Below are positions 11,512 to 63,972 of a stretch of DNA of 64,000 nt, in pieces (the first letter of the stretch is position 1; each line of letters starts with the position of its first letter). The notes under the pieces were generated by a model. The model was not told the DNA's origin, did no database searches, and worked only from the letters and a program-made list of their open reading frames with translations. This stretch comes from an uncultured Acidobacteriota bacterium (GTDB taxonomy: Bacteria > Acidobacteriota > Thermoanaerobaculia > UBA5066 > DATFVB01): NCBI GenBank assembly GCA_963714035.1, contig OY970224.1:2337996-2401995 (forward strand), written 5' to 3'. Made by a program: the position numbers and the translations under genes.

Positions 11512-12431
11512 CGTTCCTGATCTCGCACGTCACGATCGCCACACCGTGGCTGATCGCGGTCGGATTCGTCGTCGGCATCCTCGGCGGATTTTTCGGCGTC
11601 GGCGGGTCCTTCCTCGCCGGCCCGGCGCTCTACGCGCTCGGCCTGCCGATGAACTACGTCGTCGGGACCGACATCGCCCACATCGTCGGGAAGTCGGTCG
11701 TCGCGGCGAAGAAACACCGCGCCCTCGGAAACGTCGACGTCAAGCTCGGGCTCGTCATGGCGCTCGGCACGATCCCGGGCGTCGAGCTCGGCGCGCGGCT
11801 GGTCCAGGTCCTGAAACGGACGAAGCATGCCGACGTGGCGCTCGGCCTCTCCTTCTCGGTCGTGCTTCTCGTGATCTCCGCCTTCATCACCTGGGAATCG
11901 ATCGGCGCGCTGCGCCGGAGCCGGGCGAGCCGCACCGGAAAGATCAAGACCAGGACCGCGCCGAAAAAGGACCGCCTCCACTTCAACTCGCTCTGGCAGT
12001 GGATCCACGGCATCCGGATCCGTCCGATGATCCGGCTGCCGGTCTCCGGCATCCGCGTCTCGTTCTGGGCGGTCCTCGCGGTGTCGCTCGTCGGCGGGTT
12101 CTTCTCCGGTTTCCTCGGCGGCGGGGCCGGGTACATCCGGATGCCGATGCTCGTGTACGTGCTCGGAGTCCCCACGCACGTCGCGATCGGGACCGACCTC
12201 TTCGAGATCATCCTCTCCGCCGGCTACGGCACGTTCTCCCACGCGCTGAAGGGGAACGTCGACATCCTGATCGCGCTCGTCATGCACACGGGCGCGGCCA
12301 TCGGCGCCCAGATCGGCGCCCAGGCGACCGAAAAGTTCCATGGGCCGGGAATTCGCCTCGCCTTCGCGCCGCTTCCGATCCTCGGTGCGGCGACCCTCCT
12401 CTACGAGCTGCACCATCGAGGACTGCTGTGA
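11508..12431 (+). CDS. TauE/SafE family sulfite/anion exporter
   Basis: Two-repeat 4+4 TM architecture with Gly-rich GGFFGVGGSFL and GGFFSGFLGGGAG motifs typical of TauE/SafE. Confidence 0.8.
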   Translation: MTFLISHVTIATPWLIAVGFVVGILGGFFGVGGSFLAGPALYALGLPMNYVVGTDIAHIVGKSVVAAKKHRALGNVDVKLGLVMALGTIPGVELGARLVQVLKRTKHADVALGLSFSVVLLVISAFITWESIGALRRSRASRTGKIKTRTAPKKDRLHFNSLWQWIHGIRIRPMIRLPVSGIRVSFWAVLAVSLVGGFFSGFLGGGAGYIRMPMLVYVLGVPTHVAIGTDLFEIILSAGYGTFSHALKGNVDILIALVMHTGAAIGAQIGAQATEKFHGPGIRLAFAPLPILGAATLLYELHHRGLL

Positions 12432-20229: not shown

Positions 20230-20314
20230 TTGCGAGTTGCGAGTTGCGAGTGACAAACGCCATGACCCGCCACCCGTAACTCGCAAACGCGAAACTCGCC
20301 ACTGCGGCCGCCCC
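20230..20314. repeat. Hairpin repeat of the GGCGAGTTGCGAGTTGCGAGT family
   Basis: cagtggcgagttgcgagttgcgagttgcgagtgacaaacgccatgacccgccacccgtaactcgcaaacgcgaaactcgccactg is an almost perfect inverted repeat. Related copy at 50075-50184. Confidence 0.75.
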
Positions 20315-20360
20315 GCGCGCGTTCGCGCCGCGCACAGGGTTCGACCGGGCTTTCCGCCGA

Positions 20361-21449: not shown

Positions 21450-21573
21450 AACCTCAAGGCGCGGTCAGACGTGCCGGAAGATGCGCGCGGGCGACCGGGC
21501 CGGCGGGCAAGGCGTACCGTGGCGTACGTCGCGCCCGCCGGGCGGTCGCCCGCGTCCCGTATAACGGCGCGTA
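21450..21573. repeat. ~125-bp dispersed element, GCGCGGTCAGACG...CGTACGT...CGTATCACCGCGCC family, copy A
   Basis: Shares termini and an internal ACGTAC core with copies at 37749-37975, 43916-44040 (inverted), 47914-48096, 62883-63010 (inverted) and 63488-63609. Confidence 0.7.
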
Positions 21574-21585
21574 TCACCGCGCCTT

Positions 21586-22641
21586 TTACCGCTCCGCGCC
21601 GGCGGCGTTGATCGAGTCCTGCACCTCGACCTTCTCCGCCATGTCGTGCGCGAACGACATCGCCTTCTCCCACGCCTGGCGCGCGTGCGCAAGATCGTGC
21701 TTCCCGGCGTAGGCGTCGCCGATCGTCGCGTAGATCCCGTAGAGCTGCCGGCTCTGCGGATGTTTCGCCGCGTAGTCGGAGAGCCATGCGATCGCCTCGT
21801 CGTATTTCTTGTGCTCGAGAAGAGGATTCACCGCGAGATTGATCGATTGGCCTTCGTTCGCCCTTCCCCTGGCCTGCTCGCGCAGCTCGGCGGCGCCCTT
21901 CGCATCGCCTTTCTTCTCGAGGATGGCCGCCTTCGTGCGGAGAGCGCCGAACGTCGCGTTGAGAGAAATCGCGTGATCGATGTCGGCGAGCGCCGCATCG
22001 ACGTCGCCGTGGGCCATCTCCCATCGGGCCGCCTGGGCCCACGCCTCGGCATTCCAGTGCTTGCCGCCCCGGAGCTCGTCCCGGATCGACGCGCGCACCG
22101 TCGCCGGAACGTCGACGCTGATCCGGATCGGGACCCGGAGCCGCTCCCAGCGGAGCGAGAGCGTCGCCGCATCGTCGCCGAGATCGTCGAACGTGTAGAC
22201 GAGCCGCTCCTGCGGTTCCGCAAGCGGCTGCGGGGAGATCTCGACGCGCGCGGCGTCCTCCGACGGCTCGTAGCTGTACGTCCCCCAACCGCCGGGAAAG
22301 CGGCTCAGCGCGACGGTCCAGCGGGACGCGCCGGGGATCATGAAGAGCCCGTACGTTCCCGCGTCGACCGGTTTTCCCTCGACCGTCACCGGCGTCGAGA
22401 AGGAGATGACGGTTCCCTCGTTGGCGCCCGCACGCCAGACGACTCCGTAGGGCACGAGACCGTCCCAGATCTTCCGCTTGTTCACCGCCGGCCGGTGATA
22501 CCGGACTTCGATGTCGGTGATCCCGATCGTCTGCATGGCGGAGGCCGCCGGGCTCGTCTCCGGCAGGTCGAGAAGGGATTGCCCGCGAGCGATTCCCGCC
22601 GCGAGAAGGATTCCGGCCGCGACAATGAGGTTTCTTTTCAT
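21586..22641 (-). CDS. Secreted DUF2911-like domain plus TPR-repeat protein
   Basis: Signal peptide MKRNLIVAAGILLAAGIA. The N-terminal RYHRP...WRAGANE-type region and C-terminal TPR-like helices match DUF2911-TPR proteins. Confidence 0.6.
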   Translation of the reverse strand: MKRNLIVAAGILLAAGIARGQSLLDLPETSPAASAMQTIGITDIEVRYHRPAVNKRKIWDGLVPYGVVWRAGANEGTVISFSTPVTVEGKPVDAGTYGLFMIPGASRWTVALSRFPGGWGTYSYEPSEDAARVEISPQPLAEPQERLVYTFDDLGDDAATLSLRWERLRVPIRISVDVPATVRASIRDELRGGKHWNAEAWAQAARWEMAHGDVDAALADIDHAISLNATFGALRTKAAILEKKGDAKGAAELREQARGRANEGQSINLAVNPLLEHKKYDEAIAWLSDYAAKHPQSRQLYGIYATIGDAYAGKHDLAHARQAWEKAMSFAHDMAEKVEVQDSINAAGAER

Positions 22642-25348: not shown

Positions 25349-26008
25349 CTAGCGGGAGCCGCGGCGAATCGTCCCGCGGCGGCGCGCCGGCGGGGGCGAC
25401 GCGGAGAGCCCTGCGGCGGCGAGCGCCGCCGCGGCCGCGAGCTTGTGATTCGCCTGCCAGGGCGGCCCGATCGATCGGCCCATCGCGGCGAGGAACGCGT
25501 CGATCTCCTCGCGGCCGAGAGCGGCGGCCGCGTCTCCGAACACGCGCTCGCGGTCGTACCCGAGGACGGCCCAGCCGCGCGCCTCCGCGGCGGCGGCGAG
25601 GGCCTCGCGATACATGACCGAATCGGCGAACGTCTGCGCCCGGTTGTCGGCGATCCGCTCCTCGATCGTCGGCGGAAGCTTCGGGCACGCGCGGATCGCG
25701 ATGCGCGCGATCGGCACGGGCACGTCCGCCGCCAGAGCCTCGAGACCCTCGCGCGCGCCGCGCGCGGCGGCCTCTCGCACGCGTTCGACGAGCGCCACGG
25801 CCTCGGCAAGCGAAACGGGCCGCGCCCAGGGACTGTTCGAATAGCGCCCCATCGCCCACGAGCCTTCGTGATGGTGCGGGTGCGTCGGCAGGCCGCGAGT
25901 GAGAGCAATGCTTCGGCGATCGAGAAATGCGCCGCCGGGACCGAGCGTGACGAGCACCGCCGTGTTCGAGGATTCCGCGACGCCGACGGTCGCCGTCGCT
26001 GCTTTCAT
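25349..26008 (-). CDS. Hypothetical protein (no family recognised)
   Basis: 219-aa frame with the MKAATATVGV start confirmed on the sequence. Ala-rich; domain unknown. Confidence 0.4.
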   Translation of the reverse strand: MKAATATVGVAESSNTAVLVTLGPGGAFLDRRSIALTRGLPTHPHHHEGSWAMGRYSNSPWARPVSLAEAVALVERVREAAARGAREGLEALAADVPVPIARIAIRACPKLPPTIEERIADNRAQTFADSVMYREALAAAAEARGWAVLGYDRERVFGDAAAALGREEIDAFLAAMGRSIGPPWQANHKLAAAAALAAAGLSASPPPARRRGTIRRGSR

Positions 26009-26046
26009 CCTCTCGCCGGACTTTCCCCGCCCGGCCATGGCCGCCG

Positions 26047-26784
26047 TCATCTCTCCCCGTTCGGAACGAGGCTCACCGCCTGGCCCACGTGGATCGTCCC
26101 GGGGCGCACCGCCGTTCCATAAACCCCCGCGTTGTTCCCGTTCAACTGCACCACCGCCTTCATCGGGCGCCCGTCCTGCTTCCCCGTGTCGGGGTCCAGA
26201 TTGATCATCATGCATCGTTCGTCGCGCAGGGTGACGCTCACGGCCGGCATCGGCTCGCGTTCCCCGAACACGAGCGTCCCGCCGATCCACGCGTCCTCGG
26301 CAAACGGCCCGGGGTCGTCCGCATCGAGCACGATGTTGGCCCGGAAACGCCGGCGATCGAGCTCCATCCCGGCCGCCCGCCCGATGCCCGCGATGGTCTG
26401 CCGGGTGATCACCGAGATCGGCGCCTCGTCGAAGATCCCGTGCTTGAGCTTCATCAGCTCCACCTCCACGCCGCACTTCGCCGCGATTTCGCTCCGGAGC
26501 TCCTCGCCGCGCAGCTCGAGCTCGGCTCCGGCCGGCGTGCGAACGTGCGTCGGCAGCGGCTCGGCCGAAGACTCGTCGAGACCGAACGGGCGGTAGAGGA
26601 TGAGCCCCGGAAGGCGGCTCGCGGAGAGCCACGGGAAGCCGTTTTCCTCTCCCGGCCGACGGAATGCGAAGCGTCGATCCCCGTCGAGCCCGTGCCAGCC
26701 GAGCACGGCCGACTCCGCCGCGGCGCCCGCCATCGACTTGACGGGATACCGCACCAGCTCGCGAACTCGCCCGAGGGGAATCAT
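26047..26784 (-). CDS. MOSC domain-containing protein
   Basis: N-terminal beta-barrel followed by a MOSC core with the conserved Cys (RFRANIVLD...DERCMMINLD). Confidence 0.75.
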   Translation of the reverse strand: MIPLGRVRELVRYPVKSMAGAAAESAVLGWHGLDGDRRFAFRRPGEENGFPWLSASRLPGLILYRPFGLDESSAEPLPTHVRTPAGAELELRGEELRSEIAAKCGVEVELMKLKHGIFDEAPISVITRQTIAGIGRAAGMELDRRRFRANIVLDADDPGPFAEDAWIGGTLVFGEREPMPAVSVTLRDERCMMINLDPDTGKQDGRPMKAVVQLNGNNAGVYGTAVRPGTIHVGQAVSLVPNGER

Positions 26785-29047: not shown

Positions 29048-29103
29048 GGAGGGCGCTCCTTTTCAGTCTGTGTGACCTGCGTTAACTGCCTAACCACCCG
29101 GGT

Positions 29104-29460
29104 TCAGCGGCGGCACGGCGCGCCTGAGGCGTCCCGAACCGTGATCGCTAGGAAATCGGCGTCGGTTGAAACCATCTCAGGCTGAATGTTCTTGGGAAGT
29201 GCACAGAACTCTTGACGCCGGACTTCGCCGGATAAACTCTTCAGCTGCTCGGCGGATAAGTGGATGAGCCGTGACGAGACCCCAGGATGAACACACGTAT
29301 CTTCGCTCCGTCGGTGAGCGAAACCCGACGCATAGATTGCCGTGTACCATCCTGCACCGCACCATACCGTTCGCTCGACCTCGATGATCGGCTTCTCCTC
29401 AGCGCCAAAGGCCACTGATGCAATCAGCACGATCATTCCGCCAACGGTGACTAGCCGCAT
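29104..29460 (-). CDS. Secreted hypothetical protein
   Basis: Signal peptide MRLVTVGGMIVLIASVAFGA. Confidence 0.45.
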   Translation of the reverse strand: MRLVTVGGMIVLIASVAFGAEEKPIIEVERTVWCGAGWYTAIYASGFAHRRSEDTCVHPGVSSRLIHLSAEQLKSLSGEVRRQEFCALPKNIQPEMVSTDADFLAITVRDASGAPCRR

Positions 29461-29513
29461 AACGACCCGGCTTCAGCGGCAAGGCCGAAGTCCGCTGCAA
29501 GCCGATGTTCGGG
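29461..29513. repeat. Island REP-like hairpin element, copy 1
   Basis: aacgacccggcttcagcggcaaggccgaagtccgctgcaagccgatgttcgg, with paired CAGCGG/CCGCTG and CGAAC/GTTCG arms. Confidence 0.75.
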
Positions 29514-29520
29514 GTGCGCA

Positions 29521-30140
29521 TCATTTGGGCGCCTTTCGCGCACCCGTGTCAACAACGAACTCATGCTGCTTCCGGCTCCACCGATATCGCCTGTCCCCAC
29601 TACTTTGGGTCAGTTGGGCGTTGTTGTACACGCCGACTCGAAAACCGTTCTCGGTGGGCCAGATGCCGATAGAGCTGGATATACCACCGAACCTATCGCC
29701 AGCGATCGGGAGAGCGCTTATGCGACCGCTGGGAGCGATGGTGAGCACGTGGTAGCCAGAGAAACCCATGCAGCTCGGCTGCTCGATTGTGAAATCCGGG
29801 TCGCCGTCGTCGTTGTAATCGTCAAATTCCAGCTGAGTCTCACCGTTTCTCAAGAATGTGAGGTCGGGTTCGCCGGTCACCTCGTTCAAATCGGTAGTGA
29901 CTTGTGTTCCAGTGTCGAGCGTGGCGATTGCTTTAAACTGGCCAACCCACACGTCAGCCGCAGGCCCAGCGCAGCTCTTGGCTTCCGGCCTCGCGTTGCC
30001 GACTTCGATTCGTACGGCCGCCACTTTCATACTCAGATCCGCCCGGACGATGGAGTTTACGACTACGGCTGGCTTTTCGGCCGCCACGGCGGAAACCGTC
30101 ATCGTTAGCCCCGCAAGTATTGCCAAAGTGCTCGAGAACC
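29521..30140 (-). CDS. Secreted hypothetical protein; the start is approximate because the annotated N-terminus runs into REP copy 2
   Basis: Signal-like segment TLAILAGLTMTVSAVAA. The ORF-track start at 30228 would translate the REP element (IGFQRTARLRLAAAEA). Confidence 0.45.
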
Positions 30141-30149
30141 ATCGCGCCC

Positions 30150-30212
30150 CGAACGACCAGGCTTCAGCGGCGGCAAGCCGCAGGCGCGCCGTCCGCTGAA
30201 AGCCGATGTTCG
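30150..30212. repeat. Island REP-like hairpin element, copy 2
   Basis: cgaacgaccaggcttcagcggcggcaagccgcaggcgcgccgtccgctgaaagccgatgttcg. Confidence 0.8.
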
Positions 30213-30224
30213 CCCGCCCGCCGA

Positions 30225-30770
30225 TCATCGTGAACCGACCAGTATCTGCGCCGGCGCAGCCTCAAGCCTCGTGTCGTAGCAGCCATAAACGTCGCAATCA
30301 GAGCCGTACACGATTGATTGCGACACGCTGACTCGGGCGGGCCCTTCGCCGACATCTGGAATTCGTACAGAATCGGTCCAGGTAAACGTTGCCTTGGGAT
30401 CGACGTGGAACGTTGACTTGCAGTACGGGTGGCCTACACGCGTCGAGAGCCCTCTGCTCCGCGCGCTGCCATCGAATCTGATGTCCCGACTCGAGCCAAT
30501 GCAGCCCTCAATGGTCTGATCGCCGCTGTTCGTTACGCCGAGCCGGACGATTACTTCCTGGTTGGCGGTGACATGGTCGGCGGAGAGGCTGATCGATAGG
30601 GCAAGATTCTCGCGGTAGCGGGCGAGCTGAGCGGTGATTCGTGTCCATGCCTCGGGCGAAGCCCGTTGGGGTAGCGTCTGTCCAGACCGTTGCGGAGAAT
30701 GGTTCTGGTTTTGCGCTGCGCAAGAGAACCCGAGGGCAGCTACGATGCCGATGACCACCACACCACTCGC
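30225..30770 (-). CDS. Secreted hypothetical protein; start approximate for the same reason
   Basis: Hydrophobic segment VVVIGIVAALGFSCAA. The upstream part of the ORF translates REP copy 3. Confidence 0.4.
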   Translation of the reverse strand, partial: ASGVVVIGIVAALGFSCAAQNQNHSPQRSGQTLPQRASPEAWTRITAQLARYRENLALSISLSADHVTANQEVIVRLGVTNSGDQTIEGCIGSSRDIRFDGSARSRGLSTRVGHPYCKSTFHVDPKATFTWTDSVRIPDVGEGPARVSVSQSIVYGSDCDVYGCYDTRLEAAPAQILVGSR

Positions 30771-30808
30771 CTTACACCTGCTCAACGGTAAGCCTCGCTC
30801 GGGGCGGG

Positions 30809-30873
30809 CGAACGACCCGAGTTCAGCGGTGGCGAGCCGCAGGCGAGCCGTCCGCTGCAAGCCGATGTTCGGG
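30809..30873. repeat. Island REP-like hairpin element, copy 3
   Basis: cgaacgacccgagttcagcggtggcgagccgcaggcgagccgtccgctgcaagccgatgttcggg. Confidence 0.8.
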
Positions 30874-30886
30874 AACGTCAGATTAC

Positions 30887-31624: not shown

Positions 31625-31664
31625 TTCTCAGGCCTTGTCGATTACCCGATACTGCTTACGTTCC

Positions 31665-31728
31665 CGAACGACCTGGCTTCAGCGGCGGCAAGCCGCAGGC
31701 GCGCCGTCCGCTGCAAGCCAATGTTCGG
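31665..31728. repeat. Island REP-like hairpin element, copy 4
   Basis: ccgaacgacctggcttcagcggcggcaagccgcaggcgcgccgtccgctgcaagccaatgttcgg. Confidence 0.8.
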
Positions 31729-31736
31729 CGTCTTCG

Positions 31737-32276
31737 TCATGACCGCGATGACCTGAGTACCATTGCCAGCGTGACCAGGAGACTCGCTAATATGCCAAGA
31801 ACGAGAATTCCAAGTGGGCGTTGATACCACGGAAGTATTGGGTGATCAGCCTCTAAGGCACGCCGTACCTCTGGACGAAGAGTTTCTGAAATTGCCTTCA
31901 TCTTATTCCTGAGGTTCGGTGCTAGGGCAGGCAGCCCGATTCCCGCCGCGACCGCGGACAGCCGCGATTCGTATCCGGCCGCGATCGTGTCGATCTCGGA
32001 GAGTGCGGCGCGTGACAGCCGGGCCGCCGCACGTTCCCTCAGCCAGCCAACCCTGGGTTTGGGAAGAAGGGCGATTCGCGTGAGACACAGTTGTTTCGCC
32101 TCCTCCAGCGCGTCGCAATAGATTTGGGAGTAGCCAGCCAGCAGGGCGCTTGAACGTGCCCGCCCGGCGCTAGCCTGCGAATTCGCCTCGCGTTCTAGGC
32201 GCTCCGTGACCCGCGCGTTGTGGTCCCGCCACGCTGCCTGACACTCTGCCAGGAGCCGTGACACATCGTTACTCAT
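31737..32276 (-). CDS. Hypothetical protein with a C-terminal TM anchor
   Basis: 179 aa. The helical N-terminal region is cytoplasmic-looking; a hydrophobic helix sits at the C-terminus (LGILVLGILASLLVTLAMVL). Confidence 0.4.
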   Translation of the reverse strand: MSNDVSRLLAECQAAWRDHNARVTERLEREANSQASAGRARSSALLAGYSQIYCDALEEAKQLCLTRIALLPKPRVGWLRERAAARLSRAALSEIDTIAAGYESRLSAVAAGIGLPALAPNLRNKMKAISETLRPEVRRALEADHPILPWYQRPLGILVLGILASLLVTLAMVLRSSRS

Positions 32277-32874: not shown

Positions 32875-32951
32875 TCGGGGCGTAGCGCAGCCCGGTAGCG
32901 CTCCTGCTTTGGGAGCAGGAGGTCGTCGGTTCAAATCCGACCGCCCCGACC
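32875..32951 (+). tRNA. tRNA-Pro (anticodon TGG)
   Basis: Acceptor stem CGGGGCG/CGCCCCG, D-stem GCGC/GCGC, anticodon arm CCTGC-TTTGGGA-GCAGG, T-arm GTCGG-TTCAAAT-CCGAC, discriminator A, and CCA encoded. Folded by hand. Confidence 0.85.
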
Positions 32952-37740: not shown

Positions 37741-37748
37741 GACATCAG

Positions 37749-37975
37749 AGCGCGGCAAGACGTGCCGGAAGGTGCGCCCGGGCGGCGCCCTGGTCCGACC
37801 TTGCGTGAGGAATGACCGCCCTCGATTCGGACTCCGATGAGGCGCGGCCAGGCGCGAGCCCGGCGGGATGCGGGCGCCCGAGCCCGCGGCCGAGGCATAC
37901 CGGGGCGTATGTTGAGGCCGCGGGTCGTCGCGCACGCGCCCGCCCGGCTCGATGCATCGCCGCGCACACGATAGG
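37749..37975. repeat. ~125-bp GCGCGG...CCGCGC family, copy B (two degenerate tandem units)
   Basis: gcgcggcaagacgtgccggaaggtgcgc... and gcgcgagcccggcgggatgcggg...ggcataccggggcgtatgttgagg...gatgcatcgccgcgc. Confidence 0.7.
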
Positions 37976-37986
37976 ATGCGCGCCGC

Positions 37987-39123
37987 ATGACACCCGATCT
38001 ATTGACCGCCTGCGTCTTCTGCGGCATGTCGCTCCTCCGCACCGGGCTTCCCTCGCCCTCCGGCCTCTTCGGCGAGTTCGCGGCGTCGTACGCGACGCTC
38101 GAGCGCCGCGACGCCAGCGGCACGATCTACGCGAACGACGGTTCCGACGTGACGCCGAAATTCCTGCTCGTGGGGACGGGCAACGCGAAGGACGCCGATC
38201 CCGGGCTCGGCGCCGGAACGCCGGCGCGCGAGTGGTTCGCGCGTCTGGCGATCGCCAACTCCCACGACGAGCAGAGCCAGACGTTCCGGATCCCCGACGC
38301 CGTCGTCGCGACGGGCAGCGGCCGCTATGAGAATTTCGAAGCCGGCGGACGCCTCGATCTCGGCGCGCGGGACTCGGTCGAGGCGGCCGTCGCCCAGCGG
38401 GTCCACAAGATCGTCGACCTCATCAACCTCGGCGGATCGAAATTCCAGTTCTCCGAGGAGCGCAACCTCTTCGCCCAGCGCGTCGACGTCTCGGTCGGCT
38501 GGCGCCACCGGTTCCGGGACGCGGAGGTCGCCGCCGCCGTCCGCGGCGTCCGCCCGGAGGGGACGTACAACACGGCCGCCGTCTATCGGGAGGGGAGGGC
38601 ATGGATGCCCGGTGGGGAGATCGAGGGCCGCTGGCGGCACGGGACCCTGTCGCTGGGAGCTTCGGGAGAAGCGGCGGCGGCCGACATGTCGCTCGACGAG
38701 CAGCGGGCTCCCGATTTCGCGCACGTGTCCTACACCGAGCACGCCTCCGTGGCCTCGGCTTCGCTCTTCGTCGAAAAGACGTGGGGGCCGACGAACATGT
38801 ACTTCTCGATCGGCGCGGACCGGTCGCGGCTCCCCTTCGTCGCCATGGCGATCCTCGGCCGCGAGACCAGCTATTTCGACGAAGGGTACCGGCCGGACTC
38901 GCGGACGAAGGAAATCGTCTGGGACCTCGAGGCGCGCCACCGGGTTTCGCCCGGCGTCCACCTCCGCGCCTACGTCCGCGTGATCCAGGGAAACGAGACC
39001 GTGGCGCTCAATGATCCCGCCGGCGCGCTCGCGCCGGTCGACCTGTCCGTGCGGCGCGGAGGGCACTGGCCGATCACGCAGTTCATGCTCGGCGGCGGAG
39101 CGGATTTTTCGATCGGGAAGTGA
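37987..39123 (+). CDS. Hypothetical protein (possibly exported)
   Basis: 378 aa with a weakly hydrophobic N-terminus. No family recognised. Confidence 0.45.
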   Translation: MTPDLLTACVFCGMSLLRTGLPSPSGLFGEFAASYATLERRDASGTIYANDGSDVTPKFLLVGTGNAKDADPGLGAGTPAREWFARLAIANSHDEQSQTFRIPDAVVATGSGRYENFEAGGRLDLGARDSVEAAVAQRVHKIVDLINLGGSKFQFSEERNLFAQRVDVSVGWRHRFRDAEVAAAVRGVRPEGTYNTAAVYREGRAWMPGGEIEGRWRHGTLSLGASGEAAAADMSLDEQRAPDFAHVSYTEHASVASASLFVEKTWGPTNMYFSIGADRSRLPFVAMAILGRETSYFDEGYRPDSRTKEIVWDLEARHRVSPGVHLRAYVRVIQGNETVALNDPAGALAPVDLSVRRGGHWPITQFMLGGGADFSIGK

Positions 39124-39313: not shown

Positions 39314-40345
39314 TCAGTCGAGAAAGTCGGCGAAGAGCGCCTCGAACCCGGCCGAATCGTCCGGAAGGACGCCGACGGCGCGGATGCGGCGCTCGAGACC
39401 CGCGATCCCACGGAACGCCGCCGGCTCCCGGAACGCGATCGCGTAGAGCGGCTCGTCGAGCATCGAGAAGCGAAGCGTCTCCCGCGTCTTCGGGAAGGCG
39501 CCGGGAGACAGCCGCGTGACGGAGAGAATGTTCGAGGCGTCGATCCGGGCCGACCATCGCATCCCGAACCGGAGGCGGAGGACCTCTCCGTCGAACGTCG
39601 CGGGCCGCAGCCGGAGCGCCTGGAAATCGCCGAGCAGCCAGAGCACGGAATACAGGTCGAGCGCCGTGAACGTCCAGGCCGCGCGGACGCTCCACTTCGA
39701 CAGAAGCACGTGCGCGCCGAAACCCTCTCCGGCGATCAGCAGGAAGACGACCGCGAGCACCGTGGGCCACCCGCTCGCGCGATAGAACGTGACGCTTTCG
39801 CCCGGACTCCGGCGCTCGCTTTCGGGCGACGATCCGCGGCGCCACGAAAACAACGCGAACCAGAGAATCGCGATCTCGGCGGAGAGAAAACCCGCGAGGC
39901 GGCCGGGGCCGAAGATCCCTTCGCAGGCGAGGCGGATCTTCTCGACGGGGTCGGCCGAATCCGCCGCCCGGAGGACGCGCGAGACCCGGCGGGCGCGCGC
40001 GAGGACGACGCCGAGAAGCACGATCTCCAGCGCCGACGCGAGCGGGACGAGCGCGTGCAGAAATTCCTGATGCCCGCGCGGGACCAGGAACCTCGCGAGA
40101 ATCATCCCCGCGCCGAAGACCGGGATGAGCGTCGCCGGATGAGCGCCGCGCCGGACGACGAGGAGCCAGTAGAGGGCCGGAATCGTCACGCACAGGTCGA
40201 ACGTCACCCCGAAAGCGCCCATGTCGGGAGCGCGGTCGAATAGCGGCGTCCGGACGATCGCCGCGCAGACGGCCGCGACGAGACCGGCCGAAACCCAGAA
40301 GGCGGCCGGAAACGGGCGGCGGACGGCGGCCCGGGTGTGCGGCAT
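39314..40345 (-). CDS. Membrane protein with C-terminal soluble domain, hypothetical
   Basis: Start MPHTRAAV at 40343-40345 was verified on the sequence. ~6 TM helices, then a ~120-aa soluble tail. Confidence 0.5.
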   Translation of the reverse strand: MPHTRAAVRRPFPAAFWVSAGLVAAVCAAIVRTPLFDRAPDMGAFGVTFDLCVTIPALYWLLVVRRGAHPATLIPVFGAGMILARFLVPRGHQEFLHALVPLASALEIVLLGVVLARARRVSRVLRAADSADPVEKIRLACEGIFGPGRLAGFLSAEIAILWFALFSWRRGSSPESERRSPGESVTFYRASGWPTVLAVVFLLIAGEGFGAHVLLSKWSVRAAWTFTALDLYSVLWLLGDFQALRLRPATFDGEVLRLRFGMRWSARIDASNILSVTRLSPGAFPKTRETLRFSMLDEPLYAIAFREPAAFRGIAGLERRIRAVGVLPDDSAGFEALFADFLD

Positions 40346-43500: not shown

Positions 43501-43898
43501 ACCTGTCGATCCCGGCGGCCTACCTGCCGGAAGAGAGCCTGCGGCTGGCGCTCTACAAGCGGATCGCCCGGGCGCGCGACGATGCCGAGATCCGGGAGAT
43601 CGCGAAGGAGACGGAAGACCGCTTCGGGCCTCAGCCTCCCGCCGTTGCGAACCTGATCGAATACGGACGCCTCCGCCGGCGCGCGGAGCGTCTCGCGATC
43701 AAGTCGATCGAGCGGCGGCGCGCGGGATACCGGCTCGTCTTCGACGCGGAGTCCCGGGCGCAGCCGGGAAGGGTCGTCGCTCTCCTGCGCGGGAAGGAAG
43801 GCGCGTCGGTTTCGCCGACGGGCGTCGTCTCGCTTCCGGGCGACTGGAACGTCGAGAAGGTGATGGCGTTCTTGGACGCGCTTCTGGAGGCCGCATGA
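40530..43898 (+). CDS. mfd: Transcription-repair coupling factor Mfd (the start may lie inside the tandem repeat, e.g. GTG at ~40638)
   Basis: UvrB-homology N-terminal domains, the RNAP-interaction/TRG region, superfamily-2 helicase motifs (GDVGYGKTEVA, DEEQRFG), and the C-terminal TRCF domain. Confidence 0.9.
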   Translation: MAEALRRAGVRAQTDRAGVPAKTEGAEVRAQTERPGVRAQTEGAGRRRLVVSGAVGALPGAIAALLSESAPVLVIAADESSAETVASDAAAFGGGGICVAPEPSLTPYQRVAPSLKYRRSEFALLTALAENGCRIAAVPARFLFARLPSPEGFTERRFPVSRGGTAERGALLAFLAREGYAATDLVTETGDFAARGGIVDVFPPDRDRPIRIELDGDEVASIRTFDPDTQRSDAVLERVVVGPLAAVSESEEAEALLEETLGRVPSSAEKTLFLPAVAGNAATIFDFAPGAQVVVLEPAAVEEALARWSDRVAADYEPERDAIAPEALLHPVAAIRDALASRTGVALDRLGLAAGSPVALAAEEVTAFDGRVREAADELRAAAARGESVLVAVHPKGGAEKLRRFAREFDVAATAIPGPISAGFRLRDDALSVWAEEQIFGAERTTPAPRRRASEAFLSDLRDLKPGDFVVHADYGVGRFRALKRIPVEGSEHEFVEIGYVDDKTLLLPVERLDLVQKYSGAEGGEPKIDRLGSASWGRKKDAARKAVKDLSEDLIRIYARRAQAQGFAFSKDSPWQKEFEDAFEHVETPDQAQAIADVKRDMERPSPMDRLLCGDVGYGKTEVAMRAAFKAVLDGKQVAVLAPTTILADQHYRTFTRRFAAFPVTIDLLSRFRDRAEQKRIAAKTAEGGVDILIATHRLLSKDIRFRDLGLLVVDEEQRFGVAQKERIKEWKASVDVLSMSATPIPRSLNLSLSGLRDLSIIETPPRNRLAIETQIIPKHGDLVREAVAFELERGGQVFYVHNRVESILAEKTFLSELLPNARIVVGHGQMSEGGLERTMLDFVARKYDILLATTIIENGIDIPSVNTIVIDRADTFGLSQLYQLRGRVGRSDKAAYCFLVIEPDAALTETARQRLATIREFCDLGAGFRIAAKDLEIRGAGNFLGAEQSGHIAAVGLEMYLDLLDEAMRQIKGEEILPERTVTISLGSDLSIPAAYLPEESLRLALYKRIARARDDAEIREIAKETEDRFGPQPPAVANLIEYGRLRRRAERLAIKSIERRRAGYRLVFDAESRAQPGRVVALLRGKEGASVSPTGVVSLPGDWNVEKVMAFLDALLEAA
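40551..40658 (+). repeat. Tandem 27-bp direct repeat x4, in frame with the mfd ORF (9-aa units GVRAQT[DE][RG]A)
   Basis: The units are gcgggggtgcgcgcacaaaccgaccgc, gcgggggtacccgcgaagactgagggc, gcggaagtgcgcgcccagactgaacgc and ccgggggtgcgggcgcagacagaaggc. Confidence 0.8.
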
Positions 43899-44905
43899 AC
43901 GTCGCGATGGGTCTGGCGCGACGATGCATCGAGCCGGGCGGGCGCGTGCCGCCCGCCCGCAGCGCTCATCGTACGCCCCGGTACGACTCGGCCGCGGGCC
44001 GGACGACCCGCATCCCGCCGGGCTCGCGCCTCGCCGCGCCTCATCGGACTCGCAAAGGATTTCTCGACCGTGGAATTTCGACGCTGGTCTTCCTCGCCGC
44101 TCTCGCCGCCGGAGCGTGCGCGCGGCGCCCGGCCCCGCCGATCGACATGATCGCCGAGATCGACGGTCGGCCCGTCATGCTCCGGTCGTTCCGGGCGTTC
44201 TTCGAAGCGAACGCCGGCCGTCCGATCGCGGAGTCGCAGCCCGCCGTCGTCTCCGGCCTCTTCGACGAATTCCTGCGGGAAGAGACCTGGCGGCGCGAGG
44301 CCCGGCTCGACACGGGCGACGACAACGTCGACCGCCGGCAGGCCCCGGGTGCGCTCGTCGCGCGGGGCGGCGACGCCCTCCGGCCGTCCGACGCGGAGGT
44401 CGCGGAGGAATATGATCGCCACCCGGAACGGTGGCGCCGGCCGGAAGAAGCCCGGGTGGCGCGGATCTTCGCCCGCGCCCGTCCCGAGGCGGAGCGAGCG
44501 CGGGCCCGCGCGGCCTCGGGGGCGGACTTCGGCGAGCTCGCGCGGACGGTCTCGAAGGCGCCGGACGCGGCGAGAGGCGGCGCGCTCGGATGGGTCCAGC
44601 GCGGCGACCTTCCGTCGGAATTCGAGGCGGCGATCTTTCGTTTGAAACCCGGAGAGGTTTCGCCGGTGATCGCCGCGGAGGAGGGTTTCCTGGTATTCAA
44701 GATGATCGACCGCCATCCCGAGCGGACACTCTCGCGGGACGAGGCCGCGCCGGAGATCCGGAGCCGCCTCGCGCGCGAGAAGGCCGACCGATATCTCCGC
44801 GGGATCGTCGACGCGGCGCGGCGCGGAGGACGCCTCCGCGTGTATTTCGACCGCCTCCCCTTCGTGTACACGGGAAGCTTTCTTCCCGGAGGAAAGGAAT
44901 CATGA
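43895..44905 (+). CDS. Parvulin-type peptidyl-prolyl isomerase (SurA/PrsA-like lipoprotein); the 5' end contains repeat copy C and the true start is uncertain
   Basis: The C-terminal PpiC domain is GADFGELA...GG.LGWV.RG.L...FE.A.F.L..GEVS.VI....GF.VFK. The only in-frame start codons lie upstream of the repeat, ~50 codons before the signal-like segment ISTLVFLAALAAGACA. Confidence 0.65.
   Translation: MNVAMGLARRCIEPGGRVPPARSAHRTPRYDSAAGRTTRIPPGSRLAAPHRTRKGFLDRGISTLVFLAALAAGACARRPAPPIDMIAEIDGRPVMLRSFRAFFEANAGRPIAESQPAVVSGLFDEFLREETWRREARLDTGDDNVDRRQAPGALVARGGDALRPSDAEVAEEYDRHPERWRRPEEARVARIFARARPEAERARARAASGADFGELARTVSKAPDAARGGALGWVQRGDLPSEFEAAIFRLKPGEVSPVIAAEEGFLVFKMIDRHPERTLSRDEAAPEIRSRLAREKADRYLRGIVDAARRGGRLRVYFDRLPFVYTGSFLPGGKES
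43916..44040. repeat. ~125-bp GCGCGG...CCGCGC family, copy C (inverted), inside the 5' region of the PPIase ORF
   Basis: ggcgcgacgatgcatcgagccgggcgggcgcgtgccgcccgcccgcagcgctcatcgtacgccccggtacgactcggccgcgggccggacgacccgcatcccgccgggctcgcgcctcgccgcgcc. Confidence 0.7.
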
Positions 44906-47786: not shown

Positions 47787-47913
47787 TTCGGCGGCGCGGC
47801 GTCATTTCCCGCGCGTTCCGCTTCGAGAGGTTTGGGCGGCCGGCGTCCCGGAGGTCGCGGTGGGAACGTCAAGGCGAGGGCAACATTTTCGATCGGACCT
47901 GAAAGCGCGTCGA

Positions 47914-48096
47914 AGCGCGAGCCCGGCGGGATGCGGGTGGGCCGCGTCTCGCCCCCATTGCGACCACGGCGAAGCGCGGAGAGACGTGCGGGAAGGCGGG
48001 TTCGGGCGGCCTGCCGACGCCTAAGGCGTACTGAAAACGTACGTCGTGGCGGCGGCAGGCCGCACGGGCCCGCATAACCGCGCGTATGTCCGCGCT
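47914..48096. repeat. ~125-bp GCGCGG...CCGCGC family, copy D
   Basis: gcgcgagcccggcgggatgcgggtgggccgcg... then cgcggagagacgtgcgggaaggcggg...aaggcgtactgaaaacgtacgtcgtgg...cataaccgcgcgtatgtccgcgc. The 3' end overlaps the stop codon of the 48095 gene. Confidence 0.7.
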
Positions 48097-49018
48097 AGCG
48101 TTTTGGAGCCAATACGCGCAGGCGTTGTTCGGCCACCCTGCACACGACCGGCGTCTCCAGCACGCAATCACCGTCGACCTGGGCCTCGACGGCGTACGCC
48201 TCGAGCGAGGTGATCCGCACGGCGCGTCCCCGCACGATCCGCGCGAGGCCGCGCTCGAGGTGCTCGCCGCGCCCCCCTTTCATGCCGACGAAGAGGCGGA
48301 ACAGGTCGCGCCGTCGGCGGGAGTCGAAGATGAGGACCTCGAGGCTGTCCGATTCGGCGGAGGCGTCGGGCGCGACGATCCAGTCGCCCGCGTAGTGCCG
48401 GGAGTTCGCGACGACCGCGAAAGTCGCGGCGTGATGCTGCCCGTCCACCTCGACGTCGAGGCGCGGGAACTCGTACTTGACGAACTCGGCGAGCGCGGTG
48501 ACGAAGATCCCGGCGCGCCCGAACCAGCGCTTGAGGCGGAGGCTCATCTTCCCCATCACCCGCGCATCGAGTCCGACGCCCGCCATCAACAGGAAAGGAC
48601 GGTCATTGGCGACCGCCGCGCGCACGGTCCGGACCTCGCCTTCGAGCATCAGGCGGCAGGCGCGGCCGACGTCGAACGGGATCCCGAGCTCGACGGCGAG
48701 CACGTTGGAGGTGCCTCCGGGCAGGATCGCGAGGGGCACGTCGGTCCCGAGGAGCGCCGCCGCCGCCTCAGACACGGTGCCGTCGCCGCCCCAGACCGCC
48801 ACGACGTCCGGCTTCTCCGGAAGATGTTCCCGGACGATTCGCGTCGCGTGGCCCGGTCCCCGCGTCGGCGCGTTCGCGAGCTCGATTCCCTCCGCCCGCA
48901 TCCGGTCGATCAGCGCATGCGTCGCGGATCGCTTGTCGCGCTGCCCCGCGGTCGGGTTGTAGATCAGGACGCCGCGGCGCGGCGCGCGGGACGGCGCCGG
49001 TTCCGCGGGGGAGCTCAA
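48095..49018 (-). CDS. Diacylglycerol kinase catalytic-domain family lipid kinase (YegS/BmrU-like)
   Basis: NP.AG ... GGDGT..E ... LPGGTSNV motifs. Apparent TTG start overlapping the ruvB stop. Confidence 0.8.
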
Positions 49019-50074: not shown

Positions 50075-50184
50075 GCAGTGGCGAGTTCCGAGTTGCGAGT
50101 CAAAAGTCGAAGATGAAGAGCCTCCCCGCGCCCCGGATGCCCATTCCCGACTCTCAACTCGCAACTGAACGACTCGCCACTGCG
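50075..50184. repeat. Hairpin repeat of the GGCGAGTTGCGAGT family
   Basis: gcagtggcgagttccgagttgcgagtcaaaag...ctctcaactcgcaactgaacgactcgccactgcggc is an inverted repeat located between ruvA and ruvB. Confidence 0.75.
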
Positions 50185-50201
50185 GCGCGCCGCCGCGCGG
50201 G

Positions 50202-50786
50202 CTAGCCGCCGGAGAGCGCCGCCAGGGCTTCCTTCAGAAACTCCGCGAACGACGGCGGCGCGCCGCGCCGCGTGAGCTGGTCCACGGCGCGCTCCGCGTC
50301 CGACTTCCGGTAGCCGAAGTTGACGAGCGCGGAGACGACGTCCTGCGCCTCGATGCCGGGACCGCCCGCGGGCGGCACGAAGAGCTTCTCCGCTTTCTCC
50401 TTCAGCTCGAGCGTCAGCCGCTCGGCCGTCTTCTTCCCGATGCCCGGGATCGAGACGAGCCGCCGAGCGTCTCCCCGCGCGAGCGCCCCGAGGAGGTCGT
50501 CGGCGGGGATTCCCGAGAGCAGCGTGAGCGCGAGCTTCGGCCCGACGCCCGACACGGAGATCAGCATCTCGAAGAGCTTCTTCTCCCGGTCCGACGCGAA
50601 ACCGAAGAGCGCGAGCGTGTCCTCGCGCACGTGCGTGTGAACGAGGAGGGCCACGGAGCCTCCCGCGTCGGGAAGCTCCTGGTACGTCTGGAACGAGATC
50701 GCGATCGCGTAGCCGACGCCGCCGACGTCGAGGACGACCCGGTCGGGCAGCTTCTCGAAGAGGATCCCGGAGAGCCGGGCGATCAT
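50202..50786 (-). CDS. ruvA: Holliday junction DNA helicase subunit RuvA
   Basis: MIARLSGIL...VLDVGGVGY start (OB domain), the HhH pair ([20 protein letters not shown]), and C-terminal domain III. Confidence 0.9.
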
Positions 50787-52105
50787 CCGCGGCCGGCGCC
50801 GGCGGTTTCCCGCGCGTCGAGCGTCGGGCGCGCGGCCGCCTCGAGCGCCGATTCGAGATCCGCGACGAGATCGCGGACGTCCTCGGCGCCGACGGAGAGA
50901 CGGATCGTCGATTCGCGGATGCCGAGCGCTTCCCGGCGCTCCGGGGCGAGCATCGCGGGGGAGTGCGACGTGATCGCCGGAAGGTCCGCCGTCGTCTCGA
51001 CGGAGCCGAGAGACGTCGCGAGGCGGACGAGCCGAAGCGCCTCGACCGTGCGCCGGGCCGCGGCGCCTCCCCCCTTCACGTCGAAGGCGAGCATGGCGCC
51101 GAACGCCCCGTCCATCTGCCGCGTCGCGGCGGCATGCCCGGGATGATCGGTGAGCCCGGGATAGTGGACTCGCTCGACCGCCGGATGCGCCGCGAGCCGC
51201 CGCGCGATCGTCATCGCGCTCCCGGACTGCGCGCGCACGCGCAGGGCCACCGTCTTCATGCCCCGGGTCAGGAGCCACGCGGCATGGGGGTCGAGCACGG
51301 TCCCGGACATCTTGCGCGCCGTGCGGAGCCGGGCGGCGAGCGCCGGGGAAGCGCATGCGAAGCCCGCCGTCACGTCGGCGTGGCCGTTCAGGTATTTCGT
51401 CGCCGAATGGAGGACCAGATCGAATCCCGCCGCGGCGGGCCGCTGGAGCACGGGCGTCCCGAACGTCGCGTCGACGGCGCACAGCAAACCCCGCCTCTTC
51501 GCGACACCCGCGGTGAAGGCCAGGTCGACGATCTTGACGAGAGGGTTGGTCGGCGTCTCGACGTAGAGGAGCCGGGTCTCGGGCCGGATCGCGGATTCGA
51601 AATCGGGCTCCGACGCGGTTCGCACGAACGACACGGAGATCCCCGCGGCGGAGAGCACGTCGCGAAACAGCGCGAGAGTCCCGCCGTAGAGGTCTTCGGT
51701 CGCGACGACGTGGTCGCCCGGCGAAAGCGCCGCGCGGAGCGCGACGCCGATCGCCGAGAGACCGGACGAGAAGAGGACCGCGTCTTCGGTCCCCTCGAGC
51801 GCGGCCATTTTCTTCTCCGCCGCGGTGATCGTCGGGTTGCCGTAGCGCGAATAGAAGAGGTCGGGCCTTTCCCCGCGCGCCGCGCGTTCGAGCTCCCCGA
51901 CGTCCCGGAACCAGAACGGCGCCGTCTGCCAGATCGGATCGACGAGGGCGCCGGATGTGTCGCCCTCGCCGGCGCGCACCGCCGCCGTCGCCAGCTCGCG
52001 ATACGGGCGGTCAGCCGACTCCGGCCGGCCCGCCGTCGGGATGCTTTTTTCGCCCGGCGGCACGCCGTCCGAATCCGTCTTGCCGCCCGTCTCGCCGCGC
52101 TTCAT
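50783..52105 (-). CDS. PLP-dependent trans-sulfuration enzyme (cystathionine gamma-synthase / beta-lyase family)
   Basis: Cys/Met metabolism PLP-dependent family with the lysine motif region [13 protein letters not shown]. Overlaps the ruvA start. Confidence 0.8.
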
Positions 52106-62882: not shown

Positions 62883-63010
62883 CGGCGCGGACCATACGCG
62901 CCGTTATACGGACGCGAAGGCCCGCCCCGCGGCGCTCAACGTACGTTCCCAGTACGCCTCGGCCGCGGGACCGGGCCTTCGCGTCCGTCTTCCAGCACGT
63001 CTGGCCGCGC
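62883..63010. repeat. ~125-bp GCGCGG...CCGCGC family, copy E (inverted)
   Basis: The reverse complement reads ggcgcggccagacgtgctggaagacgg...ggcgtactgggaacgtacgttgagcgccgc...cgtataacggcgcgtatggtccgcgcc. Confidence 0.7.
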
Positions 63011-63292
63011 CGCCGGTCGATTACTTGCTTCCACCGGGCGATTCAAGCGACGCGGACCCATTCAAACGCAGGGTCTTCACATCGCCTGATTTTTCGCCCG
63101 CGGCACCGTCACGCAGGCCCGGTACCCGAGCCAGCTCCCCCGACGAACAAAAAGGCCCCGGGGCGATCCCCCAGGGCGGGAAAAGAAGGAGTTCTTTCCC
63201 GCTTCAAAATTCGCGCCAGCACACTTTCCGGAAATAACGAAACCTTCCCCCGGGTTCACCGTAATAACCAGTAACCTTCATAACTCCTCCTC

Positions 63293-63323
63293 GGCCCCGC
63301 ATGAGGCGGGGCCCCCTTTTTTT
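63293..63323 (+). terminator. Rho-independent terminator (GC hairpin plus T7 run)
   Basis: GGCCCCGC-atga-GGCGGGGCC followed by CCCTTTTTTTCC. Confidence 0.75.
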
Positions 63324-63487
63324 CCGTCGCGGAGGCTCGCTCGGGGACCGTAAACATGTGGTGGCTCCGCGGTTCGTCGAACGAGCGACTCCGGCCGAAA
63401 AATCAGGCCATGCGAGGGGAACCGAGAACGGCCCGGGCTTAGCTCTTTGGACGTTCCTCACGGTGATCGTCTGAGGCCGCTTTCGAG

Positions 63488-63609
63488 GCGCGGTCAGACG
63501 CGAGCCCGCCGGGATGCGGGTCGGCCGCGAGATCCCGAGGCGTACCGGCGCGTACGTTGAGGGTGTCGCGGGCGGCACGCGCCCGGCCGGCTCGATGTAT
63601 CACCGCGCC
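63488..63609. repeat. ~125-bp GCGCGG...CCGCGC family, copy F
   Basis: gcgcggtcagacgcgagcccgccgggatgcgggtcggccgcgagatcccgaggcgtaccggcgcgtacgttgagggtgtcgcgggcggcacgcgcccggccggctcgatgtatcaccgcgcc. Confidence 0.7.
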
Positions 63610-63612
63610 TGC

Positions 63613-63972
63613 CTAAAGTCGCCGACGGAAGTCGGCAACGTCGCGCTTCCACACGATATCCCCGCAAAACCGGTCCCCTTCCGGGCACACCGGCCGCACG
63701 CCCGCGGCATGGCGGAGCGAACACGGGGGAAGGAGCCACTTTCCGATCCGGGGATTGATCTCGCGGATCTGGAGCGCTTCCTCGCGCGAGGCCGCCCAGA
63801 TCTCTTCCTGGGCGTTGTAGCAGAGGCGCATCGCCATCTTGTGGTGGAGGTTGAGGAGATCGGCCGACTCCGTGAAACGGACGGGCACGGCGTTGGGCAG
63901 CAGGTAGGCCGCGAACTCGTCGGGCACGCCGCGCGCGCGGAGCGCCGCGATCGCCTCCCACGTCCTCTCCAT
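63613..63972 (-). CDS. Probable FAD-dependent thymidylate synthase ThyX, C-terminal part with a Cys-rich tail (the gene may extend beyond the window)
   Basis: LLPNAVPVRFTESADLLNLHHKMAMRLCYNAQEEIWAASRE resembles the ThyX block L.LP......W.....L.NL.HF..LRLD.HAQ.EIR. The tail is CSLRHAAGVRPVCPEGDRFCGD. Confidence 0.45.
   Translation of the reverse strand: MERTWEAIAALRARGVPDEFAAYLLPNAVPVRFTESADLLNLHHKMAMRLCYNAQEEIWAASREEALQIREINPRIGKWLLPPCSLRHAAGVRPVCPEGDRFCGDIVWKRDVADFRRRL

Follow-up and report, generated by a model that had tools for sequence, protein, structure and literature searches.

A 64-kb stretch of DNA from an uncultured soil Acidobacteriota bacterium (contig OY970224.1; all 64,000 nucleotides are referred to here as the window) carries, at several places and on both strands, a GC-rich element of about 125 bp that folds into one long hairpin. 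An earlier note on this DNA had described the element at six loci and had left its nature between a structured or cis-regulatory RNA, a terminator, an insulator and a repetitive extragenic palindromic (REP) family. The locus raises the question of whether the hairpin works as an RNA or travels as a piece of DNA. With slightly better than even confidence, we read it as a lineage-specific family of REP/REPIN-like non-autonomous mobile DNA hairpins and not as a new kind of RNA gene. The element is copied between loci without duplicating its target, has a sequence preference at one of its two junctions only, keeps one orientation relative to the adjacent gene and is constrained to fold on one strand.

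A long hairpin that folds better on one strand

Within the window we found six full copies of ~125 nt, two truncated 5′ arms and one weak relative, with both strands used. A degenerate pattern of the left end or termini plus the core matched exactly the six full copies (6/6 sites; 0.00 expected in 100 dinucleotide shuffles), and a covariance model trained on the six window copies and two outside copies scored them at 94-113 bits with E-values of 1e-16 to 1e-19. Both results bear out the six loci of the earlier note, in both orientations, and the GGCGCGG/CCGCGCC termini and central GGCGTAC...CGTACGT core that it had recognised are indeed common to all six sites. Its estimate of ~2 copies per 10 kb was too high, as the density in the window is ~1 per 10 kb.

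Each full copy forms a single long, near-perfect hairpin. RNA minimum free energies range from -84 to -108 kcal/mol and z-scores from -5.4 to -11.3; none of 200 shuffles folded equally well. The unit begins with a weakly conserved, unpaired 5′ tail of ~16 nt (positions -16 to -1), which in a subset of copies reads CAGTTGAC..ACGACG; the motif CGAYG (reverse complement CRTCG) is present in a subset only. The tail is followed by a stem of ~55 bp, with a conserved base (GGCGCGG/CCGCGCC) and a conserved lower part that separates two subfamilies: A, with the blocks GACGTGCNGGAAG / CCGYATAACSGCGCGTAT (window copies 21457, 47972 and 62884, named by their first coordinate), and B, with the blocks GCGAGCCCGSCGGGATGCGGG / CGCGCCCGSCCGGCTCGATGYATC (37840, 43915 and 63486). 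The middle of the stem is hypervariable in sequence with its complementarity kept, and above it stands a conserved apical mini-hairpin, GGCGTAC-N5-8-CGTACGT, followed by a CNGC tail. Basal stem and apical mini-hairpin are the same in both subfamilies, and the 3′ terminus of the unit reads CCGCGCC-N-GC. Inspection of the window copies revealed only 1-3 extra pairs by which the stem could be extended into the flanks.

A tighter pattern, searched against metagenomes, matched at least 120 soil and rhizosphere contigs. There, nhmmer together with the covariance model detected at least about 194 copies, 144 of them full-length and 136 distinct. A looser pattern (GCGCGG..GGCGTAC..CGTACG) gave 119 loci in the genome collection, 118 of which are chance matches in high-GC genomes; the only genuine one (L084) is an Acidobacteriota metagenome-assembled genome (MAG) with two copies. 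The plasmid collection yielded negligible matches and nothing meaningful, and the viral contigs zero matches. The nearest named homologues of the RNase G encoded in the window belong to Thermoanaerobaculia MAGs, at 75% identity. Literature searches returned no description of this repeat family in Acidobacteria or Thermoanaerobaculia, and the family is previously undescribed.

Pairing was counted in 117 forward-strand copies aligned to the covariance model. Watson-Crick or G·U combinations fill 93.6% of the pair cells, and in 32 of the 42 pairs both partners have changed (549 cells). Not one of five pairing measures was reached in any of 500 column shuffles, and sliding the 3′ partners by 1-3 columns lowered pairing to 28-46%. 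These values come from an alignment fitted to the structure, and a DNA palindrome gives the same covariation signal as an RNA; what the pair counts show is that a hairpin is maintained, be it as DNA or as RNA. Absent covariation or structure conservation had been named beforehand as grounds for giving the proposal up; because both are very strong, that test does not refute it. When the window was searched against Rfam 15 at gathering score, only a tRNA was found. In E-value mode, the sole match for two copies was a chance miRNA at 22.8 bits, compared with a gathering score of 100. The hairpin repeat corresponds to no curated RNA family.

The two strands of the element do not fold equally well. 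Taking as forward the strand with GGCGCGG..AGRCG at its 5′ end, this strand was more stable than its complement in all 136 distinct copies under RNA parameters, by a mean difference of -14 kcal/mol and with 686 G·U pairs against 80. Under DNA parameters the forward strand was more stable in 130/136 copies (-57.4 vs -50.0 kcal/mol). The apical G·U is nearly invariant (100/112 copies). Within the hypervariable stem taken alone, G·T oppositions outnumber A·C ones by 138 to 36 (p = 3e-15), with the same bias in both subfamilies. The greater stability of the forward strand and the wobble bias in the variable stem therefore place one strand under a single-strand folding constraint. Mutation bias as the source of the G·T excess was rejected by reasoning, as the deamination asymmetries of the non-template and of the leading strand predict the opposite sign.

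Position beside stop codons and copying between loci

Of 147 distinct copies, 101 have their forward 3′ end at most 30 nt (in the majority of cases 3-10 nt) away from a stop codon that belongs to an opposite-strand gene, with metagenome genes taken from a codon-usage caller that was trained on the loci and checked in the window (Pfam) and in four related loci, L241-L244 (public calls), only. A stop that close to the 5′ end was seen for 2 of the 147 copies, and the remaining ones are mostly internal to arrays, at contig edges or farther from a converging stop. As the fixed end stands beside the stop codon, the better-folding strand is antisense to that gene. The mRNA of the gene carries the reverse complement, and hence a less stable version with C·A mismatches; the sense-RNA hairpin amounts to about -86 kcal/mol.

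The adjacent stops are TAG in 61, TAA in 21 and TGA in 19 cases; the corresponding background numbers are 143, 48 and 363 (Fisher p = 1.5e-18). TA is found exactly at the junction after CCGCGCCNGC in 25/116 copies (22%, vs a genome-wide TA frequency of 1%) and is enriched at this one junction only; TAG is not consistently preceded by G. The spacing between element and stop ranges from 0 to 20 nt and varies even within one near-identical sublineage, so that the target is not a fixed sequence. That the stop codon itself belongs to the unit was likewise rejected, because in one sublineage of 94-98% identity the spacing runs from 3 to 20 nt and every stop type occurs. Neither flank shows a T-run or an A-run in its position profile. 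Of 80 element-bearing 3′ ends, 50 are opposed by a converging gene (30% expected, p = 2e-9), and the other 30 copies lie at co-directional junctions.

In the window, five of the six full copies follow this rule, in agreement with the placement just past stop codons that had been claimed before. The copy at which the element was first noticed, a subfamily-A copy at 21457..21583 (+; 97.7 bits; -84.3 kcal/mol, z -5.4), is real and extends to 21583 instead of the 21573 first given. A gap of 2 nt separates its 3′ end from the TAA stop (21586-21588, minus) of a DUF2911/TPR gene, and the copy occupies the whole spacer up to the next minus-strand gene. A subfamily-B copy at 43915..44041 (-; 102.7 bits; -104.1 kcal/mol) has its 3′ end 16 nt away from the mfd stop, a TGA (43896-43898, plus; Mfd/TRCF domains). 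The subfamily-A copy at 47972..48096 (+; 112.9 bits; -98.6 kcal/mol, z -10.7) overlaps with its last 2 nt the TAG stop (48095-48097, minus) of a YegS/DAG-kinase-like gene (Pfam), the one stop-codon overlap that the earlier note had pointed out. The remaining two followers flank the rng-thyX spacer: a subfamily-A copy at 62884..63012 (-; 100.8 bits; -108.2 kcal/mol, z -11.3) ends 3 nt from the TAG stop of the RNase G gene (62878-62880, plus; Pfam RNase_E_G), and a subfamily-B copy at 63486..63609 (+; 111.1 bits; -92.5 kcal/mol) ends 3 nt away from the thyX stop, likewise a TAG (63613-63615, minus; Pfam Thy1). Both orientations thus occur within 64 kb, each after its own gene; orientation therefore goes with the gene, not with the strand of replication.

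The exception is the subfamily-B copy at 37840..37966 (+; 94.2 bits; -97.1 kcal/mol), which sits between divergent genes (LigB-like, minus; a 378-aa open reading frame (ORF), plus). Immediately 5′ of it lies a truncated subfamily-A 5′ arm at 37742..37800 (+; direct-repeat family D5, 84% identity to 21451-21493), which does not fold independently (z 0.07); the tandem pair previously assigned to 37749-37975 is thus this arm followed by one full copy. The element reported at 47914-48096 is real but composite as well, with a truncated subfamily-B 5′ arm at 47905..47946 (+; direct-repeat family D6, inverted pair I5) located 5′ of the full A copy. A weak divergent relative at 51993..52102 (-; 34.4 bits, E 1.5e-4), of uncertain membership, has the 5′ end AAGCGCGGCGAGACG in common with the family and lacks the GGCGTAC apex. 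It lies in the spacer between a SurA-like and a Cys-Met-PLP gene (Pfam), in the orientation opposite to the rule.

Copying between loci is evident from ~330 pairs of copies that are 88-98% identical over the whole unit and have unrelated 60-nt flanks (flank identity 0.5-0.6, which is random-level). The similarity between near-identical copies ends sharply at AGGCGCGG and CCGCGCC. No target-site duplication was detected, the longest word common to both ends averaging 4.21 nt vs 4.22 nt in controls.

The syntenic locus mreBCD-pbp2-rodA-rng / thyX could be compared between the window and four relatives, L241-L244, with the RNase G of the window as reference. The gene rng ends at the same residue in all five loci. 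In the window a full type-A copy follows the rng stop, TAG, and L241 (RNase G 84% identical) likewise has a full type-A copy, after a TAA stop. L242 (83%) retains only a decayed arm after a TGA stop, and L243 (77%) and L244 (73%), with TGA stops too, are free of copies over 21 kb each. Between the post-rng copies of the window and L241, the variable stems are unrelated, and the L241 stem resembles that of window copy 47972. Furthermore, array copy number differs between the near-identical contigs L191 and L128; a search for empty sites by joined flanks, which was mostly confounded by arrays, yielded only this same difference. The elements are gained, lost, replaced and copied as units.

Two sequences in L242 look like remnants. 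Directly after the rng stop, at 11570-11655, lies a decayed single type-B arm (gcgattcatcgcgcccggcgggacgcgg...ggcgtacgg), followed by an inserted 117-aa ORF, and near thyX the sequence GGCGCGGGCGCTA looks like a footprint of the terminal sequences with the hairpin deleted. The rng-thyX spacer of the window also contains, at 63205-63325 (+), a conserved sequence of ~100 nt (GAAAC-CT..CCGTA..AGTAAC.TC..CTCC) that ends in a canonical terminator (63294-63322) made of a GC hairpin and T7. Its synteny between the two genes holds for the window and for all four relatives, L241-L244, with RNase G identities as low as 73%, and the sequence is a candidate small RNA; it has no Rfam match at gathering score.

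Other arrangements were seen among the metagenome loci. Modular variants carry a different right arm (..GGCTTCGGCGCGACnAGTCGCCGCGCC), e.g., in L123 (13790-13860), L147 (175-250), L206 (9354-9430) and L136 (5540-5590), and tandem arrays with a period of 170-225 nt occur in L121, L123, L150 and L191. Contigs frequently begin or end inside a hairpin copy (e.g., L122, L132, L134, L141, L151, L159, L176, L197, L220 and L240), suggesting that short-read assemblies of these genomes break at the repeats.

Further features of the window lie outside the family. Three well-scoring ORFs are without any Pfam family, at 37987-39123 (+), 39314-40345 (-) and 25349-26632 (-); one of them is the 378-aa gene, whose start is 20 nt from the rule-breaking hairpin copy. 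A second small intergenic repeat (AACTCGCAA..CTCGCCACTGCGGC) is present at 20278-20331 and 50156-50209, with 72% identity between the two and one of them in the ruvA-ruvB spacer. The covariance model matches it weakly, at 15-19 bits.

A probable mobile hairpin and its rivals

If the family consists of mobile DNA hairpins, the folding constraint would act on one DNA strand. Tolerance of G·T but not of A·C points to a single-stranded DNA hairpin as the intermediate, which would be read in trans by a structure-specific enzyme; candidates are a HUH Y1 transposase of the RAYT or TIRYT type and a hairpin-recognising recombinase. Orientation could result from an asymmetric, short TA(R)-like target (the junction has TA, and so do stop codons) together with the loss of intragenic insertions, or alternatively from targeting that is coupled to transcription. 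As a side effect, the host mRNA would gain a stable hairpin of ~-86 kcal/mol, devoid of a U-tract, in its 3′ untranslated region (3′-UTR). Its probable effects are to block 3′ exonucleases, to make the upstream message more stable and to buffer transcription that converges.

Several observations weigh against such a mobile hairpin. Among the six-frame ORFs of ~770 kb of element-bearing loci, none matched a regular expression for the RAYT 'NHxH' motif, and a phmmer search with one IS200 TnpA sequence detected no IS200-like ORF; a single-copy enzyme gene elsewhere in the genome is compatible with both results. Clustering of the neighbouring proteins returned only response regulators, sigma-54 activators and other common families, and no recurrent transposase or recombinase. 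The GTAG head of RAYT-mobilised REPs is absent. In the Y1 mechanism of IS200/IS605, it is the replication fork and not the adjacent gene that sets orientation. A junction TA serving as 5′ target would make the gene-sense strand the 'top' strand, yet it is the antisense strand that folds better. The variable distance to the stop, even among near-identical copies, and the limited checking of the metagenome gene calls count on the same side. Apart from these points, no left-half...gene...right-half arrangement was found among the partial matches.

A more specific version of this mobility, which would amount to a way of targeting not described so far, strikes us as unlikely. Here, a single-stranded DNA hairpin would home to the first few nucleotides after stop codons in a gene-defined orientation, with the template strand of the upstream gene as the folding strand, guided by TA(R) targets or by terminating transcription or translation. 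The enzyme would stand outside the replication-fork-coupled IS200/IS605 and RAYT systems and might be part of an attC-like hairpin recombination system beyond integrons.

Selection by the host for a 3′-UTR element that acts in the sense mRNA, with spread being secondary, is possible though unlikely. Such an element would be an exonuclease barrier, a modulator of translation termination or ribosome stalling, or a Rho blocker. In its favour is the strict placement 3-10 nt after stops, which puts the hairpin base at the mRNA channel entry of the terminating ribosome. The stop bias is toward TAG and TAA, the two codons read by release factor 1 (RF1), the hairpin of the sense RNA is also very stable, and blocks of sequence are conserved across diverged copies. 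E. coli REPs at most ~15 nt from stop codons are said to affect translation and mRNA fate. However, the wobble asymmetry runs the wrong way, with C·A in the sense RNA where the antisense strand has G·U, both in the apical pair and in the variable stem. Housekeeping orthologues in relatives manage without the element, the near-identical copies at unrelated loci indicate selfish copying, and the stop distance varies and falls in all three reading frames. The structured or cis-regulatory RNA of the earlier note is not supported in the form given there: the folding-constrained strand is antisense to the abutted gene, near-identical copies have unrelated flanks, presence varies at the same locus among relatives, and Rfam offers no match.

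Termination, which had also been suggested, was rejected. No U-tract follows the hairpin in either direction, and the lineage has ordinary terminators of the hairpin-plus-T7 type, such as the one in the rng-thyX spacer. An antisense terminator with its U-tract in the last codons of the gene was discarded too, as these codons are T-enriched, not A-enriched, on the sense strand. Whether the forward strand could be functional as an RNA in another way, as a backstop that halts or processes antisense transcripts entering the 3′ end of a gene and insulates converging units, is a related matter, and we consider this quite improbable. The folding-constrained strand is the one read by polymerases entering the gene in antisense, and rng and thyX each have their own copy, in such an arrangement that transcripts running through from the partner gene reach the strong orientation last. 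The excess of element-bearing 3′ ends facing a converging gene agrees with this, and to that extent the insulator role proposed earlier may still apply. Against an antisense backstop, the forward hairpin has no U-tract and the abutting gene is not A-rich in its final sense-strand codons, canonical terminators exist in the same lineage, and 30/80 copies lie between co-directional genes, where little antisense transcription is expected; moreover, copying to new loci and the TAG/TAA bias are left unexplained.

That the copies are attC-like structure-specific sites, recombined as a folded single strand by a recombinase instead of moving in a transposon-like manner, is very improbable: internal loops and a bulged A at fixed positions as in attC sites, the missing target-site duplication, an attC-like cassette array in the same window and the parallel to integron attC sites in anatomy and strand described below argue for it, but the AAC/GTT core triplets of the attC R boxes are absent, no integrase is found among the neighbouring genes, and the copies lie scattered next to housekeeping genes whose synteny is conserved (mfd, rng, thyX, mreBCD-pbp2-rodA), not arrayed beside an integrase.

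The array just mentioned consists of separate imperfect palindromes of 65-78 nt (CGAAC...GTTCG) at 29089-29134, 29475-29524, 30148-30225, 30807-30884 and 31663-31740, each after the stop of a minus-strand ORF (118-245 aa, no Pfam match). GC content falls to 0.60 in this region, and a tRNA (32876-32949) adjoins it. The appearance is that of an attC-type cassette array with no recognisable integrase beside it.

As a mobile hairpin family, the element adds a well-populated REP/REPIN-type family in Acidobacteriota, with ~1 copy per 10 kb in the window and well over 150 copies in metagenomes. It follows clean rules, i.e., one orientation, 0-20 nt from stops, a TAG/TAA bias, no target-site duplication and strand-specific folding, which make the choice of target and the strand of the active intermediate directly testable. 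The paradox of orientation and strand is the part that could prove mechanistically new. In practical terms, the hairpins give rise to ORFs and peptide motifs that are spurious, can cause genes in high-GC MAGs to be extended or their ends to be mis-called, and probably break assemblies; the covariance model could be used for masking the repeats or as a lineage marker.

Comparison with known systems

Intrinsic terminators share with the family a GC-rich hairpin downstream of genes. The hairpins described here lack a U-tract and are 5-10 times longer than a terminator stem.

Integron attC sites of the Vibrio cholerae repeat (VCR) type, 121-129 bp long, are similar in size, in their imperfect hairpin with conserved ends or basal stem and variable distal stem, in their position right after an ORF stop, and in that the recombinogenic, better-folding strand, the bottom strand of attC, is antisense to the ORF. 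Their cores are R''/R' (RYYYAAC ... GTTRRRY), whereas the hairpin family has GGCGCGG/CCGCGCC termini, no cassette array or adjacent integrase of its own, and syntenic housekeeping genes as neighbours. An attC site in the strict sense was therefore rejected on account of the missing AAC/GTT cores, array and integrase, even though architecture and strand logic are strikingly similar.

ERIC, Correia (NEMIS) and other miniature inverted-repeat transposable elements (MITEs) are likewise imperfect palindromes of ~105-155 bp, dispersed, intergenic and co-transcribed with neighbouring genes; in Yersinia, ERIC has orientation-dependent effects on mRNA. Terminal inverted repeats are present in the hairpin family too, because the whole unit is an inverted repeat. 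MITEs of DDE transposons generate target-site duplications (TA for Correia), whereas the hairpin family has none, and there is no sequence similarity. A DDE-type MITE is ruled out by the absent duplication.

The closest resemblance is to REPs and REPINs, known from Pseudomonas, Enterobacteria and, as SMAG, Stenotrophomonas. To our knowledge, repeats of this type have been characterised almost entirely in Proteobacteria. A REPIN is a hairpin unit of ~100 nt with conserved base arms, and REPINs are reportedly mobilised by RAYT transposases. REPs lie within 20 bp of ORF 3′ ends and are enriched between converging or co-directional genes (Di Nocera 2013, PMC3733652), GTAG REPs frequently provide the TAG stop through their termini (PMC3733652), and transposases of the Y1 type flanked by terminal inverted repeats (TIRYTs) are present in Acidobacteria (PMC3733652).

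The hairpin family differs from these repeats in several respects. A REP is a unit of 20-40 bp with a stem of ~8-15 bp, compared with ~125 nt and a continuous stem of ~55 bp here; a REPIN joins two such REPs through a spacer, whereas the family forms one stem with a conserved apical mini-hairpin. The unpaired GTAG/CGTC head of REPs is absent, the gene-proximal end being CCGCGCC-N-GC. Unlike REPs and REPINs, the family keeps a strict single orientation relative to the adjacent gene, and its host is a Thermoanaerobaculia-like member of the Acidobacteriota, where only TIRYTs have been noted.

There are likenesses as well. Both are high-copy, non-coding and intergenic and leave no target-site duplication; in both, the whole unit folds as a hairpin of ~100 nt that is most conserved at the stem base and more variable in the middle. 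Both lie at most 20 nt from ORF 3′ ends with enrichment between converging and co-directional genes, often contribute to or abut a TAG stop with one end, form tandem clusters and comprise several subfamilies per genome. Replication as a hairpin unit, which defines REPIN/RAYT systems, is evident here from 90-98% identical copies with unrelated flanks and from gain, loss and replacement at rng-thyX. The placement typical of REPs is equally apparent, with 101/147 copies near ORF 3′ ends and, among 80 junctions, 50 between converging and 30 between co-directional genes. The REP family that the earlier note had listed among its possibilities is thus the one supported by this comparison, the element being a high-copy intergenic palindrome near gene 3′ ends, as REPs are (PMC3733652).

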